Shown: positions 11,599 to 37,542 of the stretch, piece by piece
How the letters are laid out: every line of letters starts with the position of its first letter
Position numbering within the stretch: the first letter of the stretch is position 1
From: an uncultured Bartonella sp.
Lineage (GTDB): Bacteria > Pseudomonadota > Alphaproteobacteria > Rhizobiales > Rhizobiaceae
Direction: 5' to 3'
DNA length: 64,000 nt
Assembly (NCBI RefSeq): GCF_946479275.1
Contig: NZ_CAMLFE010000002.1
Span: forward strand, 222,482 to 286,481
The notes under the pieces: generated by a model
What the model saw: the letters and a program-made list of their open reading frames with translations, nothing else
Database searches by the model: none
Told to the model about the DNA's origin: nothing
Position numbers and translations under genes: made by a program

Positions 11599-12963
11599 TC
11601 AGTTTACCGCATTGCCAAAAAGGCTGTTCGGAAGAGCTTCAGTGATATCAACCGGAATAATTTCGCCAATTTTCGCATTTGTCGAAACAACGACAGGTAA
11701 CAACCACGGCGAACGGCCAACCATTTGCCCCTCATGCCGGCCTGCCTTTTCAACAAGCACTTCAACACGTTCACCGATTTTCGACTTTAAAAATCGGTGC
11801 TGCTGATCAAGAATGAGAGTTTGCAAGCGTTGCAGGCGCTCGTCCTTAACACTTTCATCAACATGGTTTTTCATCGTTGCCCCCGGTGTTCCAGGGCGTG
11901 GAGAATATTTGAACGAATAGGCGGAGCTATAGCCGACTTCTTCAACAAGCTTCATTGTGGCTTCGAAATCTTCATCCGTTTCCCCCGGAAAGCCGACGAT
12001 AAAATCTCCCGAAAAGGCAATATCGGGACGTGCTTTACGAATACGTTCGATCAGTTTCAGGTAATCAGCGGCTTTATGCTGGCGGTTCATAGCTTTGAGA
12101 ATGCGGTCGGAACCGGATTGTACGGGAAGATGCAGATAAGGCATCAACATTTCAAGATTACCATGAGCTGCGATAAGGCTGTCGTCCATATCGCGCGGAT
12201 GACTTGTCGTATAACGTAACCGTTTCAAACCATCGATCTTCGCAAGTTCGTAAAGAAGATTGCCCAACCGCCAATGGCTCCCATCTTGCGAAACACCATG
12301 CCAACCATTGACATTCTGGCCAAGCAAAGTGATCTCTTTTACGCCTGCGTCAACAAGTTCGCGTGCTTCATTGATTATCTGGTCGACCGGTCGCGACACT
12401 TCAGAACCGCGGGTATAGGGCACAACGCAAAATGTGCAGAATTTATCGCACCCTTCCTGAACAGTCAGAAACGCCGTAACACCGCGTTTTTTCACAGCCT
12501 GACGGTTATGATGCGGAAGATGGGCAAATTTATCTTCAACGGCGTATTCGGTTTCAACAATCTTTTTGCCCTTGTGCACCTTGCGCAACAGTTCGGGCAG
12601 ACGATGATAGGTTTGTGGTCCAACCACAAGATCAACTGCCGGGGCGCGCCTTAGAATTTCTTCTCCCTCGGCTTGGGCAACACACCCCGTCACACCTATC
12701 GTCAACGGCTTTGAAGGATTGCGTTCCTCGCGCATAACGCGCAAGCGTCCCAAATCGGAATAAAGCTTTTCGGCAGCTTTTTCACGAATATGGCAGGTAT
12801 TGAGCAATATAAGATCCGCATCGTCGGGAGATTGCGTTGCAACATAACCTTCTGCGTCAAGGCTATCAGCCATGCGTTCGCTATCGTAGACATTCATCTG
12901 GCAGCCATAGGTTTTGATATAAACCTTGCGGGAATTGCTGTTTTTTTGTTTTGCTTCACTCAT
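11599..12963 (-). CDS. miaB: tRNA-i6A37 methylthiotransferase
   Basis: 454-aa ORF with the UPF0004 N-domain ([13 protein letters not shown]), the radical-SAM motif [15 protein letters not shown] and a TRAM C-terminus. Confidence 0.95.
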
Positions 12964-12994
12964 AACGCATATTTATCCGGTTTTCGGGGAAATC

Positions 12995-13486
12995 TCAATC
13001 GTCTTGCTGAATGGTTCTACGCATGATCAAGGCATCACTGTGGCCTTTTCCGGTTTGATAATATCCTGGCCTGCGGCCGACTTCATCAAAACCGGAACTT
13101 TTATAGAGAGCAAGCGCTGCTTTATTGTTCTCGTCAACTTCAAGAAAAAGTTGTTTTGCCCGCTCCTGATAAAGATACCTGAAAACGGCATCCATAAGTG
13201 TTCGTCCGATACCTTTCGACCGATAACGGGGATGCACGGCAATTGTGATAATTTCTGCTTCGTCAATGACCAGCCTACAAAGAATAAAGCCCAAAACTTT
13301 TTCGGGTTTACCCATCACGCTCACAGTAAAACCGAACATTTTTGGATCAGTCAAAAAAGAAGTAAAAGTTTCTTCGTCCCATGCATGATAAAATGATTTT
13401 CTATGTATTTCGTGTAGAACGTCACTATCATCCGATGTGATAGGAGCAACGGTAAATCGGGATTTTGAAAAAGGAAAACTTATCAT
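12995..13486 (-). CDS. rimI: GNAT N-acetyltransferase, ribosomal-protein-alanine acetyltransferase type
   Basis: 163-aa ORF with the GNAT motif ITIAVHPRYRSKGIGRTLM. It overlaps tsaB by 4 nt, the usual tsaB-rimI pairing. Confidence 0.82.
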   Translation of the reverse strand: MISFPFSKSRFTVAPITSDDSDVLHEIHRKSFYHAWDEETFTSFLTDPKMFGFTVSVMGKPEKVLGFILCRLVIDEAEIITIAVHPRYRSKGIGRTLMDAVFRYLYQERAKQLFLEVDENNKAALALYKSSGFDEVGRRPGYYQTGKGHSDALIMRRTIQQDD

Positions 13487-14151
13487 TCCTTTTTCCTGGG
13501 GAGAGAGAAGCCCATTTGCGGTTTTGCATCCGCTTCGCGCAAATAAAGCGGCTTCGGCGCACCTTCCGACTTTTTTAACTGCGAAAGGATTGCAAAACTT
13601 ATAACATCAGGTGCAGCAATGGAAAAAATTTGATCTTTTGCTATACCTGCAGAATGACCGATCGTCTCGGCAAATGGGCCTGCAATGATAGCCTTATTAT
13701 CAAGGGATGCTACAACGCTTTTGCAAGCCTTTACCTCGGGCGGGATAAGTTGTTCGCCCCTGTCATCAAAATCTTGCCGGTAGACCATGTCACGACCGGC
13801 ATCAATGACTGCTATCACATGGCGATCAGGAAAGTGCTTAAGGGCTTCGAAATCGATCGCTTCAAGCGAGCTCACACCAATTGCAGGTTTTTTAAGGGCT
13901 AAAGCCAGACCTCGTGCTGTTGCTACACCGATACGAACGCCGGTAAATGACCCCGGACCGACATTCACAGCAATGCGGTCAACTTTGTCTAGGTCAAGCG
14001 CTGACATATTTTTCACCGCAATGATTTGGTCAATGAGCTTCTCAGCGTGTCCTTTTCCGATATTTTCGCTTATACGCGCCAGAACACGACTGTCGTTGAT
14101 TAACGCAACGGCACAATTTGAAGAAGCTGTATCTAATGCTAATGTAATCAT
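13483..14151 (-). CDS. tsaB: tRNA t6A37 threonylcarbamoyl-transfer protein TsaB
   Basis: 222-aa ORF. MITLALDTASSNCAVAL...VNVGPGSFTGVRIGVATARGLA is the TsaB/YeaZ signature. Confidence 0.9.
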   Translation of the reverse strand: MITLALDTASSNCAVALINDSRVLARISENIGKGHAEKLIDQIIAVKNMSALDLDKVDRIAVNVGPGSFTGVRIGVATARGLALALKKPAIGVSSLEAIDFEALKHFPDRHVIAVIDAGRDMVYRQDFDDRGEQLIPPEVKACKSVVASLDNKAIIAGPFAETIGHSAGIAKDQIFSIAAPDVISFAILSQLKKSEGAPKPLYLREADAKPQMGFSLPRKKE

Positions 14152-33955: not shown

Positions 33956-33983
33956 AAAAACCGGCAACACATTGCCGGTTTTG
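33956..33983 (-). terminator. Intrinsic terminator (bidirectional shape) after the RimK-like gene
   Basis: AACCGGCAA-CACA-TTGCCGGTT flanked by A-runs and T-runs. It lies 20 nt downstream of the stop at 34003 on the minus strand. Confidence 0.65.
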
Positions 33984-34002: not shown

Positions 34003-35478
34003 TCAACGCTCGAGACGCTCGATAAACCAGCGTGTCAGATTGATCCAGACATCGTCTTTTTCCGCCAGATCCTCGACCCCGTGTTCGATATTGGGGTTGT
34101 CGTTGACTTCAATAACCACAATACCTTCATCGGTTTCTTTAATATCAACGCCGTAAAGGCCATCGCCAATGCAACGCGCCGCCTTCAAACCGATCTCGAC
34201 AACTGCCGGCGGTGCATCCGGAATAGAATAGGTTTTAAAACCACCTTCCAGTGGTTCACCACCATTCGGATCATGTTTGATGATTTGCCAATGATGGGGC
34301 GCCATTTCATACTGGCAGACAAAAAGCGGTTTGCCACCCAATACACCGACACGCCAATCGAACTTGGTCGGCAAATATTTTTGCGCCAGCAAAAGATCAC
34401 TGTCTTTGAGCCACTCATGGGCAAGGCGGCGCAATTCTTCCATTGAGCCAACGCGTTTCACCCCGCGTGAAAATGATGAATCCGGAATTTTCAACACCAT
34501 TGGAAAACCGAGAGTATCTGCCGCTCTTACCAGATCATCATTGCCGCCTATCATCACCGTAGGGGGAACCGGTACACCATTCGCGCGCATCAACTCGTCA
34601 AGATAGACTTTGTTCGTACACCGGATCATCGACATTGGGTCGTCGATAACCGGCATATTTTCCTGTTCCGCGCGACGTGCAAAACGATAGGTGTGGTTGG
34701 ATATATTGGTTGTTTCACGAATAAACAGCGCATCGAAATTGGCAAGACGTGCAAGATCTCTTGCCCCGATTGGTTCGACCTCCACACCAAGGCGAGCCGC
34801 AATTTTTGCCCAATGCTTCAAATCGGCAACATTGGTTGGCGGCAACTCTTCTTCCGGATTGCATAAAACTGCAAATGTCCAGCGTGGCGGCACTTTGTGA
34901 CGGGCTTCTTTCCAGGCTCGTGTCGTATAAGTTTCCATAGCCTCATAGAAAGCGTCGCGACTTTCACCTTCAAGCTTTTGCCAATTGGCGAAACCTATTT
35001 TGTGAATACGCGCCCATTCGCCCGGAATAACATGGACTTCCAATGCCGGAGCCCGATACCAGTCAAACAAAAGGTGACCGAATTTTTCAAAGCGGTCACC
35101 TTTTATATCATTTGAGCTATCTGTAATTCCAAAAAATACCCTGATAATTTCCGGTGCGCGTGTACCGTCTCCTTTCAGGGCCTTGTTGAGACAATCTTCA
35201 AGCTCGGGAATAGATTTTTTATAAAGTCGGCGTTCCGACAGATCGATCATGGTTTCCACTGAAGGTAACACACGATGGCCGCGGGCTTCGGCAAGAAGCG
35301 AACAGTAATAGGCGCGGCTTTGATAACGGTAGGAACGTGACAGGTTGATAATGCGAGGACGCTGACCGGCAAATAATGCAGGATTAGCCAAATAGTCGCG
35401 ATGTGTCATGACTTTGTGCGTGGTCGCACCATTATCTACGTCAGACACTCGTCCAGCAAGAATTACACAAATAGTCAT
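34003..35478 (-). CDS. RimK-family ATP-grasp amidoligase with about 190-aa N-terminal extension (RLAN-like)
   Basis: 491-aa ORF. The C-terminal roughly 290 aa look like an ATP-grasp of the RimK type (FPMVLKIPDSSFSRGV..., LLAQKYLPTKFDWRVGVLGGKPL, GLYGVDIKETDEGIVVIEVNDNP). The N-terminal part (RIINLSRSYRYQSRAYYCSLLAEARGHRVLPS) matches my recollection of the RimK-like ATP-grasp N-terminal domain. Confidence 0.82.
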   Translation of the reverse strand: MTICVILAGRVSDVDNGATTHKVMTHRDYLANPALFAGQRPRIINLSRSYRYQSRAYYCSLLAEARGHRVLPSVETMIDLSERRLYKKSIPELEDCLNKALKGDGTRAPEIIRVFFGITDSSNDIKGDRFEKFGHLLFDWYRAPALEVHVIPGEWARIHKIGFANWQKLEGESRDAFYEAMETYTTRAWKEARHKVPPRWTFAVLCNPEEELPPTNVADLKHWAKIAARLGVEVEPIGARDLARLANFDALFIRETTNISNHTYRFARRAEQENMPVIDDPMSMIRCTNKVYLDELMRANGVPVPPTVMIGGNDDLVRAADTLGFPMVLKIPDSSFSRGVKRVGSMEELRRLAHEWLKDSDLLLAQKYLPTKFDWRVGVLGGKPLFVCQYEMAPHHWQIIKHDPNGGEPLEGGFKTYSIPDAPPAVVEIGLKAARCIGDGLYGVDIKETDEGIVVIEVNDNPNIEHGVEDLAEKDDVWINLTRWFIERLER

Positions 35479-35484
35479 AGGTAA

Positions 35485-36585
35485 CTAGCTTTTCTCCAAT
35501 ATGACGGCCGCGCGCAGACCGTCTTTTCCAAAGCGCGCAATATGATCGAACACTTTATAATTCAAAGGCAAGTTTGCAGAATCGGCAATTGTCTCGCCTT
35601 CATCTTCCTCCACCCATGGATCGTGGATAAGGATATGGCTTCCGTCATCACCATGAACCAGTACCCAATGGGGAATTTTTTCACCAAACATATGGTAGAA
35701 ACTGATAAGCACAAGAACCAGAGCACCGCGCGCGAGGGCTGCGCGGATGTCATCCAATGTAAATGCAGCAATCCGCACCGGAATATGGGCAGCATCAGCC
35801 TGCTCGCGAAAATCTGTCTGGGCAACTTCCATAATTTCGCGTTTCTTGGGATCGCGCACCGAATTGATAAATAGAAACTCGTAGCTTGTGACGATGATTT
35901 CGGCTTTCAAGCCATAATTATGGGCAAGAACGGCAAGGCCGAAAGGTTCGCATCCGCCCGGTCCCGAAAGCATGAACACAGTAGTGGCGCCCCGCCACAG
36001 TCTAAGTTCGAACACAGGATCAAGGCGGGACTGGGGATTGAAATATTTGAGTGCCATCATCAGGCAGGCAGCACCACAGGTAAATTCCGAAGTCTGCTGA
36101 TAATAGGGCACAGATGTTTCAACCGGTGTGTCTCCACGCAAGGTTTTTTCGTAACGCAACGCCGGTGTATGATCGGCATAATAATCGAGGTAACGACCGA
36201 TCGGGCGGTAACGGAAGCGTTCGTAAAGCTTGATTGCCCGCTCATTGTCTTCGCGAACTTCGAGCCGCATATAAACGCGCCCTTCATCAAAAGCTGCTTG
36301 TTCTGCCGCTTCCAATAGCCCGGAACCGACACCTTTTATTTTGCCACCCGGTTTGACAGCGAGTGAATAGAGCCGTGCAAGTGCCGTGCCTTTACGAAAC
36401 AAAATCATTGCATAGCCGATAATTGTACCATCAAGCTCGGCAACAATTGTTCGGGCTGTCGGCCGATCTATCAATGTGCGAAAGGAGCGACGGGAAATCC
36501 TGTCACTGTCAAAGCAAGCTTCTTCAATCGCAACCAATGAATCTATGTCATCAATTGTCGCTCGCCGTTTTATCAAATTACCCAT
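35485..36585 (-). CDS. GNAT acetyltransferase fused to a papain/C39-like cysteine peptidase domain
   Basis: 366-aa ORF. The N-terminal about 150 aa are GNAT (LYSLAVKPGGKIKGVGSGLLEAAE..., RLEVREDNERAIKLYERFRY). The C-terminal about 200 aa carry a Cys motif QQTSEFTCGAACLMMAL and a His/Asp motif IPHWVLVHGDDGSHILIHDPW, typical of C39-like thiol peptidases. The stop is 6 nt before the RimK-like ATG. Confidence 0.8.
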   Translation of the reverse strand: MGNLIKRRATIDDIDSLVAIEEACFDSDRISRRSFRTLIDRPTARTIVAELDGTIIGYAMILFRKGTALARLYSLAVKPGGKIKGVGSGLLEAAEQAAFDEGRVYMRLEVREDNERAIKLYERFRYRPIGRYLDYYADHTPALRYEKTLRGDTPVETSVPYYQQTSEFTCGAACLMMALKYFNPQSRLDPVFELRLWRGATTVFMLSGPGGCEPFGLAVLAHNYGLKAEIIVTSYEFLFINSVRDPKKREIMEVAQTDFREQADAAHIPVRIAAFTLDDIRAALARGALVLVLISFYHMFGEKIPHWVLVHGDDGSHILIHDPWVEEDEGETIADSANLPLNYKVFDHIARFGKDGLRAAVILEKS

Positions 36586-36879
36586 TCACCTGCTCTCAAT
36601 TTTTGAACGCCTTTCAACATTTCAGACGTAACACAGTCCATATAAGGGTTTTTTTACGCATGAATAGGCCATATTTCAGCTTTTTCAAGAAAACAGTCAA
36701 AGCTATCCCATGCTTTTTATAAATGGATAGCAAAACATCTTTATCTTCTCTTGAAATCACGCCGTTAACCATGTAAAAACCTTAAATATATGAAAACACT
36801 ATGTTTTCAATTTTAACCATAATTCAAATCTTAACGCGGTGTTGCATTCCTGTCATTGACTAGGAACCAAAGTTGGACT

Positions 36880-36895
36880 TTAACCTTTTGTTAAC
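36880..36895 (+). promoter_or_regulatory. Full CtrA-box consensus TTAA-N7-TTAAC
   Basis: The sequence reads TTAACCTTTTGTTAAC. It ends 35 nt upstream of the BTLCP ATG. Confidence 0.35.
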
Positions 36896-36930
36896 GATCT
36901 TTATCGTGACAGGTTAAATCGAGTACAAAA

Positions 36931-37542
36931 ATGGTGTTTGCGTTCAGAATATTGGGAGTGGCGATTTTAGCAGTTGTCGGCATGACAACGGCAGCTAAAG
37001 CGGCAAGCGAATTTATGACCGTCAACGGCCAGACATCCCAGCCTATCGGACATTATGAATTTTGTGAACGCCTGCCCCATGAATGCAAAATCCGCAACAG
37101 TGTACTCCAGCCTGTCAAATTGACACAAAGCGTCTGGGATATGATGCTTGATGTCAACCACAGTGTTAATGCACGCATTACTCCCGCGACAGACATGGAA
37201 CTTTACGGCAAGGAAGAATATTGGACCTATCCGGTAAATGCCGGCGACTGCGAAGACTATGTTCTGGAAAAGCAGAAAGAATTGCGCGACAAAGGCATTC
37301 CTCTTGCAAGTTTGCTGATTACAGTTGTCCGCAAGCCCGATGGCGAAGGTCATGCGGTTTTAACCGTCCGCACCGATCGTGGCGACTTTATACTTGATAA
37401 TTTGCGCGACGAAGTGTTCAATTGGAAAGATACGGAATATACATATCTTAAACGTCAATCGACGCAATCTCCCGGAAAATGGGTAAGTATCGAACAACGT
37501 GACGATATTGTTGTGAGCTCGGTTAACAATACCGGAAACTGA
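36931..37542 (+). CDS. Secreted bacterial transglutaminase-like cysteine peptidase (BTLCP / LapG-type family)
   Basis: 203-aa ORF with the signal peptide MVFAFRILGVAILAVVGMTTAAKA and the catalytic-triad context GDCEDYVLEK...GHAVLTVRTDRGDFILDN (Cys-His-Asp). Confidence 0.8.
   Translation: MVFAFRILGVAILAVVGMTTAAKAASEFMTVNGQTSQPIGHYEFCERLPHECKIRNSVLQPVKLTQSVWDMMLDVNHSVNARITPATDMELYGKEEYWTYPVNAGDCEDYVLEKQKELRDKGIPLASLLITVVRKPDGEGHAVLTVRTDRGDFILDNLRDEVFNWKDTEYTYLKRQSTQSPGKWVSIEQRDDIVVSSVNNTGN

Follow-up and report, generated by a model that had tools for sequence, protein, structure and literature searches.

The conserved gene pair

The window analysed here, a stretch of 64,000 nucleotides (nt) from an uncultured Bartonella sp. 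(contig NZ_CAMLFE010000002.1, positions 222,482 to 286,481), contains a two-gene cassette on its minus strand. Gene A encodes a protein in which a GNAT acetyltransferase domain is fused to a papain-like cysteine domain of the DUF3335 family, and gene B encodes a RimK/LysX-type ATP-grasp ligase that carries an additional N-terminal domain, RLAN (Table 1). A first-pass annotation made from the sequence alone had placed two minus-strand genes 6 nt apart in front of a common terminator. Both open reading frames (ORFs), the TTACCT spacer and a hairpin at 33982..33957 are indeed present, and the junction between the genes reads ...GGAGAAAAGC TAG TTACCT ATG.

Do the two genes belong together? A scan of one genome per species with a profile of 14 sequences returned at least some 590 matching stretches, of which the best 80 loci were examined. 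These come from Hyphomicrobiales, Rhodospirillales, several Gammaproteobacteria and Methyloversatilis. A second scan, of metagenomes, contributed 80 further and more diverse loci, annotated with domain hidden Markov models. Gene B lies directly downstream of gene A and on the same strand in 79 of the 80 best species-scan loci; stop-to-start distances in co-directional homologues are mostly -8 to +10 nt, often with overlap. The degenerate exceptions are a metagenome-assembled genome without gene B (L008) and a locus with a truncated gene B (L073). The metagenome loci mostly show the two genes in divergent orientation, some 200 nt apart. Overall, 142 of the 146 informative loci (97%), from Alpha-, Beta- and Gammaproteobacteria and metagenomes, keep the genes side by side, co-directionally in 81 and divergently in 61, and the other 4 have gene A only. 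That genes A and B stay linked even where their order has changed argues strongly for a shared function, and the co-occurrence beyond this genome on which the first-pass annotation hinged is thereby established. The single operon that it described is seen here and in co-directional homologues, but is a lineage-specific arrangement given the 61 divergent ones. Its term 'translationally coupled' is plausible in view of the stop/start distances, from which it is deduced. The sole Shine-Dalgarno-like GGAG upstream of gene B ends 15 nt 5' of the ATG (35479-35500, minus strand); with this motif so poorly placed, translation of gene B may rely on reinitiation by ribosomes leaving gene A, as would be consistent with the overlapping stop and start codons of most co-directional homologues.

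Neither ORF can plausibly be a chance one: homologues number in the hundreds, with 40-97% identity overall and 60-75% within an order. Carriers include Brucella/Ochrobactrum, Mesorhizobium, bee-gut Bartonella and Azospirillum, where the cassette is on a chromid; the gene A protein is 97% identical to that of Bartonella apihabitans, a honey-bee gut bacterium. No experimental study of DUF3335, RLAN, DUF2817 (a third family described below) or the combination of RimK, GNAT and C39 was found in the searchable literature, in agreement with the earlier statement that the pair has no experimentally defined product. The definitions of these domains reportedly go back to Iyer et al. in 2009. The description of the cassette as an undescribed system has to be given up: DUF3335 and RLAN are Pfam families, the proteins have names at NCBI ('GNAT family N-acetyltransferase/peptidase C39 family protein' for gene A, 'RimK family protein' for gene B), and the fusion of DUF3335 to GNAT was noted in a 2023 classification of papain folds (PMC10318531). 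The cassette typifies a ligase/peptidase module that has been catalogued but has no biochemistry attached to it, and it will not surprise a specialist. At the same time, no characterised pathway that accounts for it was found, the pair recurs in other genomes and the catalytic residues are in place.

The GNAT-peptidase fusion

The two-domain architecture proposed for gene A holds. Residues 20-124 match Acetyltransf_1 (Pfam, 6e-17, 62.4 bits against a cut-off of 20.7), and the acetyl-CoA loop KGVGSGL occupies residues 84-90, so that both marks of the GNAT superfamily, the (Q/R)xxGxG/A-type loop and the Acetyltransf_1 match, are present. The AlphaFold2 (AF2) model of the protein (predicted local distance difference test, pLDDT, 87.9; predicted template modelling score, pTM, 0.82) confirms a GNAT fold together with Foldseek, whose top matches are 9mto (a bS18 acetyltransferase), 4pv6 (Ard1) and 2cnm (RimI), with target-normalised TM scores of 0.87-0.91. 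The best NCBIfam match of the domain is likewise RimI (TIGR01575), under the equivalog cut-off (69.5 versus 86.4 bits). The window also contains a canonical arrangement of tsaB (13483-14151), rimI (12995-13486) and miaB (11599-12963), spanning 11599-14151 on the minus strand, which indicates that the genome has a separate housekeeping RimI. The gene A domain shares 27% identity with that protein and the motifs LEV, LY, (D/G)YY and DAL. Residues E109, Y121 and Y135-Y136 of gene A are conserved in its family and align with LEV, LY and GYY of the window's RimI; E109 and Y121 align with the catalytic Glu and Tyr of RimI (E103 and Y115 in the Salmonella enzyme).

The second domain matches PF11814 (DUF3335, 'Peptidase_C39 like') over profile positions 1-205 of 206, with 260.1 bits against a cut-off of 25. 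Its candidate catalytic Cys, C170, lies within FTCGAACLMMAL, and H306 and D322 lie within HWVLVHGDDGSHILIHDPW at a spacing of 16 residues. The Cys, His and Asp named by the first-pass annotation withstand comparison and can be extended by a Gln: in a 43-sequence alignment with identities down to 26%, Q164, E193, W307, D322 and P323 never vary, and at least 90% of the sequences retain C170 and H306. A few family members have Ser in place of the catalytic Cys. An exhaustive search with the Cys domain recovered 407 clusters (50% identity) at E<=1e-10.

Since the Foldseek list for gene A was filled by GNAT matches, structural relatives of the Cys domain were sought by a profile search against PDB sequences. 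The double-Gly leader peptidase LahT150 (6mpz) is a weak match (E=0.002) aligned at both Cys-domain motifs, and the BtrH-like 9quz a weak match (E=0.003) aligned at the His/Asp segment alone. Peptidase C39 proper (PF03412) scores 30.4 bits against a cut-off of 22, with only residues 159-193 placed on profile positions 2-36 of 133. The match to GUCD1 is below its cut-off (21 versus 28 bits); the nearest family of DUF3335 has been given as Guanylate_cyc_2/GUCD1 (PMC10318531).

The RLAN-ATP-grasp ligase

Gene B had been read as a RimK-like ligase with an extra N-terminal domain, and Pfam assigns both parts. RLAN stands N-terminal to the RimK-like ATP-grasp module, as membership of PF14401 requires. 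Its hallmark, NLSRSYRYQSRAYYCSLLAEARGHRVLP, begins at residue 45 and corresponds to the Arg/Tyr-rich consensus NLxRxYxYxxxGYYxSLLAExRxxRxxP (residues 45-72), which is almost invariant across distant homologues, including an orphan Pseudomonas aeruginosa protein. Searches of the PDB by sequence and by structure found no relatives of RLAN. The idea that RLAN is a diverged copy of ATP-grasp, GNAT, C39-like or DUF2817 domains was rejected, hhalign probabilities being at most 0.3%.

The Pfam RimK/ATP-grasp match covers roughly residues 244-466, and the module can be aligned to RimK and LysX over the entire catalytic region. The Lys (K330) and the Asp, Glu and Asn ligands of Mg-ATP (D445, E457, N459) are aligned with those of RimK and invariant down to homologues of 40% identity. 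Foldseek matches were obtained for the ATP-grasp half only, with LysX/ArgX and RimK on top and the graspetide ligase PsnB at rank 32. Gene B falls under every curated cut-off: 81.7 versus 275.6 bits for LysX (TIGR02144), 76.3 versus 143.4 for TIGR00768 and 28.3 versus 331 for the RimK equivalog NF007764. MptN and CofF are also among the NCBIfam matches. The HWQ loop and the RLAN motif, both nearly invariant in the family, have no counterpart in RimK or LysX and are likely substrate or ligand determinants.

Family variants and a third partner

In nine divergent loci a gene for a DUF2817 protein of 365-376 amino acids (aa) lies between genes B and A, on the strand of gene A and abutting its start; in a further locus, L116, it precedes gene A with no ligase nearby. 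The DUF2817 assignment has E values of 1e-79 to 1e-93; the protein also matches, weakly, MpaA, REP34 and the catalytic domain of AstE/aspartoacylase, which makes it an M14-type zinc carboxypeptidase-like protein. No DUF2817 is encoded in the 64-kb window.

Other variants concern gene A itself. Some members have an N-terminal domain that Pfam no longer recognises as GNAT. Tandem members (L083:5974-7215, P0271, P0279 and P0316) have two C39-like domains with intact Gln, Cys, His and Asp and no GNAT; around L083, the only tandem member for which a locus was obtained, 6 kb of flanking sequence contain no RLAN ligase. An apparent fusion of the C39-like domain to RLAN, P0333, was rejected on reading its sequence: it is a gene-calling artefact, a frameshifted read-through that carries the tail of a gene A homologue into the beginning of a gene B homologue.

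Two ligase homologues deserve separate mention. At L073 (11141-13460) the ligase ends after 129 aa and is followed by three foreign-looking genes, the first of them resembling a helix-turn-helix regulator; it looks as though the ligase had been disrupted by inserted DNA. P. aeruginosa pZYPA1927 (L081, NZ_CP133752.1 32344-46922) encodes an RLAN-RimK ligase 41% identical to gene B with no GNAT-peptidase gene nearby. This 179-kb record is typed as a plasmid and contains a chromosome-like block made up of ggt, a Glu/Asp ATP-binding cassette (ABC) transporter, pagP, a short-chain dehydrogenase/reductase gene and the ligase. From the PAO1 gene order, the orphan ligase presumably corresponds to PA1345. 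In the literature PA1345 is listed only as a hypothetical ATP-binding protein.

Genomic setting

The cassette has a GC content of 0.485-0.493, the same as its surroundings, and its neighbours are housekeeping genes (acnA, ccmABCDG, gcrA and an argD-like gene). A horizontal-transfer island was ruled out, as the GC content is native and there is neither a tRNA nor an island boundary. A promoter scan of the intergenic region upstream of gene A gave no signal above shuffled expectation, and hence no reliable promoter. A 52-aa ORF at 36614-36772 (minus strand) is 66-70% conserved inside Bartonella and not outside. Clustering of flanking ORFs found no third ORF of at least 50 aa within 6 kb, and no small ORF of 12-70 aa within 800 nt, that is shared beyond close relatives. 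The earlier remark that no substrate or precursor gene is evident nearby can thus be extended to the homologous loci: with no shared flanking ORFs, the pair lacks a linked precursor peptide, a carrier protein and a transporter. PADLOC models of anti-phage defence gave zero matches for either protein.

Beyond the intergenic region, a gene at 36931-37542 (plus strand) encodes a 203-aa bacterial transglutaminase-like cysteine proteinase (BTLCP) of the LapG type, with a full-length Peptidase_C93 match and an N-terminal hydrophobic segment that, judged by eye, resembles a signal peptide. It was considered as a part of the system and rejected, because its divergent adjacency with gene A is confined to Bartonella and Brucella/Ochrobactrum.

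Table 1. Features of the cassette in the window, and DUF2817 genes of homologous loci
Feature	Position	Strand	Basis or remark
Gene A (GNAT + DUF3335 C39-like)	35485..36585	minus	366 aa ORF
GNAT domain, RimI/Ard1-like, aa 1-150	36136..36585	minus	Pfam, NCBIfam, Foldseek; coordinates verified
DUF3335 C39-like domain, aa 159-363	35497..36111	minus	PF11814 1.6e-77, conservation; coordinates verified
Q164	36094-36096	minus	coordinates verified
C170	36076-36078	minus	coordinates verified
H306	35668-35670	minus	coordinates verified
D322	35620-35622	minus	coordinates verified
Spacer TTACCT, 6 nt, gene A TAG to gene B ATG	35479..35484	minus	sequence reading
Gene B (RLAN + RimK/LysX-type ATP-grasp ligase)	34003..35478	minus	491 aa ORF
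RLAN domain, aa 27-179	34942..35400	minus	PF14401 4e-38, 130.7 bits vs cut-off 25
ATP-grasp ligase module, aa ~198-491	34006..34887	minus	RimK/LysX alignment, Foldseek; coordinates verified
K330	34489-34491	minus	coordinates verified
HWQ loop, H396-W397-Q398, family-specific	34285-34293	minus	replaces RimK FRSNLHRGG with HWQ...EGG
D445	34144-34146	minus	coordinates verified
E457	34108-34110	minus	coordinates verified
N459	34102-34104	minus	coordinates verified
Terminator-like hairpin (11-bp GC-containing stem, 4-nt loop, T-run)	33957..33982	minus	20 nt past gene B stop
Intergenic region between gene A and divergent BTLCP gene	36586..36930	none	presumed site of cassette promoter
DUF2817 genes in loci L087, L092, L095, L109, L116, L117, L122, L132, L145, L161	L117: 4396-5511; L145: 4436-5539		

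A model for the cassette and its alternatives

What might such a module do? All three catalytic centres (acetyltransferase, thiol peptidase-type and ATP-grasp) look intact, and the system is therefore almost certainly active. The reading that we favour, tentatively and at somewhat less than an even chance, is a cytoplasmic add-and-trim module that builds an alpha-linked, probably acidic extension on peptide or protein termini, the substrate being encoded elsewhere. The gene B ligase would use ATP to activate a carboxylate of the substrate as an acyl-phosphate and would then attach an amino acid, most probably L-Glu and possibly repeatedly, with RLAN acting in substrate docking or regulation. 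The thiol-peptidase domain of gene A would cleave the same substrate, so as to shorten the added tail or to create a new N-terminus, and the RimI-like GNAT domain would acetylate a free alpha-amino group. In some lineages DUF2817 might provide a second, C-terminal trimming activity. What we infer is the chemistry of each of these steps, the identity of the added residue (Glu) and the nature of the substrate (a protein or peptide, not a metabolite). A protein or peptide terminus is preferred because it is there that the closest characterised relatives of each of the three domains act: RimI/Ard1, C39 leader peptidases and RimK/LysX. RimK and LysX/ArgX extend C-terminal Glu residues of proteins, and in rimK/rpsF and rimI/rpsR the substrate gene is likewise unlinked. 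The fusion of a peptidase to an acetyltransferase makes sense as 'cleave, then cap' on one substrate, and the insertion of DUF2817 against gene A fits an activity that undoes a RimK-type reaction by taking off C-terminal residues. A reversible post-translational modification, in which the RLAN-targeted ligase tails a protein other than bS6 with an amino acid or oligo-Glu, the thiol peptidase (with the M14 enzyme where present) removes or processes the tail, and the fused GNAT marks the target, is in our estimation unlikely.

A number of points weigh against the add-and-trim module. Neither a substrate nor any feature that would separate a protein from a small-molecule substrate was found. Small GNATs often match RimI best by default, and the amino-acid acetyltransferases PAT, ArsN and PaiA are also among the structural matches of gene A. 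With the HWQ loop in place of RimK's substrate loop, gene B need not be specific for Glu. For gene B the AF2 model is poor (pLDDT 61.6; RLAN core under 50), since its alignment was restricted to close homologues, and is uninterpretable for RLAN. In some clades the GNAT domain is degenerate or absent. The four loci with gene A and no ligase (L008, L083, L099 and L116) and the solitary ligase of P. aeruginosa indicate that the activities are separable. Several RimK-family enzymes, MptN, CofF and eukaryotic RIMKLA/B, act on small molecules. DUF2817 resembles AstE/aspartoacylase, which cleave N-acyl amino acids, as well as carboxypeptidases. Finally, RimK polymerises free Glu to poly-alpha-Glu (Kino 2011, cited in PMC13419641), and papain-fold relatives can be transacylases (PMC7183216).

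The main rival is a metabolite pathway, a bacterial analogue of those of N-acetyl-aspartyl-glutamate (NAAG) and N-acetylglutaminylglutamine amide (NAGGN), in which the GNAT N-acetylates Glu, Asp or Gln, the ligase adds one or more Glu, and the peptidase and DUF2817 turn over the resulting N-acetyl di- or oligopeptide. We regard it as rather doubtful; its product would serve, for instance, as an osmolyte, a storage compound or a signal. A GNAT, a RimK-type ATP-grasp enzyme and a peptidase make up the NAGGN trio, the gene A GNAT weakly matches the NAGGN synthetase model TIGR03103 (5.5e-8), no lineage has a linked substrate gene, the AstE/aspartoacylase model matched by DUF2817 has members that deacylate N-acyl-Glu/Asp, and in the P. 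aeruginosa record the solitary ligase has ggt and a Glu/Asp ABC transporter as neighbours; the MptN and CofF matches and the polymerisation of free Glu by RimK point the same way. However, a polypeptide that combined a biosynthetic acetyltransferase with a degradative peptidase would work against itself in such a pathway, the closest relatives of the GNAT are peptide N-terminal acetyltransferases and not ArgA, NAT8L or Ngg, and C39-type peptidases recognise extended peptides. The TIGR03103 match of the gene A GNAT amounts to 31.8 bits against a cut-off of 569 and gene B has none, the GNAT is dispensable in some clades, and there is no amidotransferase or exporter partner. Functionally unrelated neighbours would explain the loci in which either gene stands alone, but this idea deserves next to no credence: it is refuted by the 97% adjacency in three proteobacterial classes and two gene orders, and is at odds with the overlapping stop and start codons and with the absence of any other gene conserved around the pair.

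The Cys domain could instead form a thioester with the ligase product and transfer it to an acceptor amine in the manner of the papain-fold enzymes CtaG and BtrH (butirosin), with the GNAT as a capping enzyme. CtaG is a proven Cys-His-Asp transacylase that cooperates with the ATP-grasp enzyme CtaD (closthioamide), is related by HHpred to PF11814 and BtrH, and has a triad, C11/H128/D144, with the same 16-residue His-Asp spacing as H306/D322 of gene A (PMC7183216). In the profile search DUF3335 scored similarly against BtrH-like structures (9quz and others, E=0.003) and against C39 peptidases, and the linkage of ligase and Cys domain is tight. We nevertheless hold a transacylase to be quite improbable. 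The BtrH match is confined to the His/Asp segment, the invariant oxyanion-hole Gln and the alignment of LahT150 at both motifs are just as compatible with a peptidase, and the DUF2817 partner is of a hydrolase type. Moreover, the Cta and Btr systems are thiotemplated, whereas genes for a peptidyl or acyl carrier protein (PCP/ACP), a decarboxylase or any further biosynthetic enzyme are not conserved around the cassette, and its housekeeping context and 60-75% identity across an order are unlike secondary-metabolite clusters. Least in keeping with the loci, apart from a chance pairing, is a ribosomally synthesised and post-translationally modified peptide (RiPP) of graspetide or microviridin type, in which the ATP-grasp enzyme would cyclise a precursor, the C39-like domain remove its leader and the GNAT acetylate the new N-terminus. 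Microviridin clusters do combine ATP-grasp ligases, the GNAT MdnD and C39-type leader peptidases, and PsnB appears among the structural matches. Yet there is no precursor, the ORF clustering having turned up no conserved small ORF and no third ORF beyond close relatives, and no transporter; the ligase is nearest to RimK/LysX and not of the MdnB/C type, and native GC, housekeeping context and high conservation also speak against such a cluster. We give it a very slight chance, the missing precursor essentially excluding it.

To define the chemistry of the cassette would be worthwhile whichever substrate emerges, as it would add a new bacterial N-acetyl peptide metabolite or reveal a new protein-tailing cycle, and would give a first function to DUF3335, RLAN and DUF2817. 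A two-gene system in genetically tractable hosts is directly testable and a good experimental target.

Comparison with known systems

How does the cassette relate to systems of defined function? Gene B is of the same ATP-grasp family as two alpha-L-glutamate ligases, E. coli RimK, which adds poly-Glu tails to bS6, and the RimK of Pseudomonas rimABK, and conserves the catalytic Lys and Asp/Glu/Asn. The likeness to rimABK (RimK/RimB) extends to the linkage of a ligase gene to a peptidase gene and to the unlinked substrate gene. Gene B differs from RimK in the extra 190-aa RLAN, in the substrate loop and in scores far below the RimK cut-offs. The rimABK peptidase is retropepsin-like, whereas in the cassette a GNAT is fused to a peptidase of the papain-fold thiol type, and the EAL/cyclic di-GMP partner of rimABK has no equivalent in the cassette. 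LysX/ArgX, which ligate an amino acid to the C-terminal Glu of the amino-group carrier protein LysW, are the best match of gene B in both sequence and structure; unlike in that system, neither a LysW-like small zinc-ribbon gene nor lysine or arginine biosynthesis genes are found near the cassette.

The same trio of activities recurs in the pathways to two N-acetylated acidic or amide dipeptides, NAGGN (the Ngg GNAT-ATP-grasp fusion, AsnO and a peptidase) and NAAG (eukaryotic NAT8L with RIMKLA/B, the product being broken down by a peptidase and aspartoacylase). The wiring is different: the cassette fuses the GNAT with the peptidase, whereas Ngg fuses it with the ligase. In place of AsnO, no amidotransferase is conserved near the cassette, and the cassette GNAT is RimI-like. 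With the C39 leader peptidase domains of the bacteriocin ABC transporters ComA, LahT and PCAT1, the Cys domain of gene A has in common the papain fold and the order Gln...Cys...His-(16 residues)-Asp. In contrast to C39 transporter domains it is about 60 residues longer and is not part of a transporter, and the loci have no ABC exporter or double-glycine precursor gene. CtaG/BtrH and the ATP-grasp enzymes CtaD/BtrJ offer a further parallel, an amide ligase that, as in the cassette, is coupled genetically to a Cys-His-Asp enzyme of papain fold, but those systems are templated on carrier proteins within secondary-metabolite clusters and the cassette has no PCP/ACP nearby.

The remaining parallel is eukaryotic and, as it involves other ATP-grasp and M14 subfamilies and DUF2817 is absent from the window, can serve as an analogy only. 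In tubulin glutamylation the TTLL ATP-grasp ligases are opposed by the CCP M14 carboxypeptidases, the same opposition of ligase and M14 enzyme as in the DUF2817-bearing loci. If the cassette does carry out a reversible protein modification, it would be a bacterial counterpart of tubulin glutamylation and deglutamylation, at work in Brucella, rhizobia, Azospirillum and bee-gut Bartonella.

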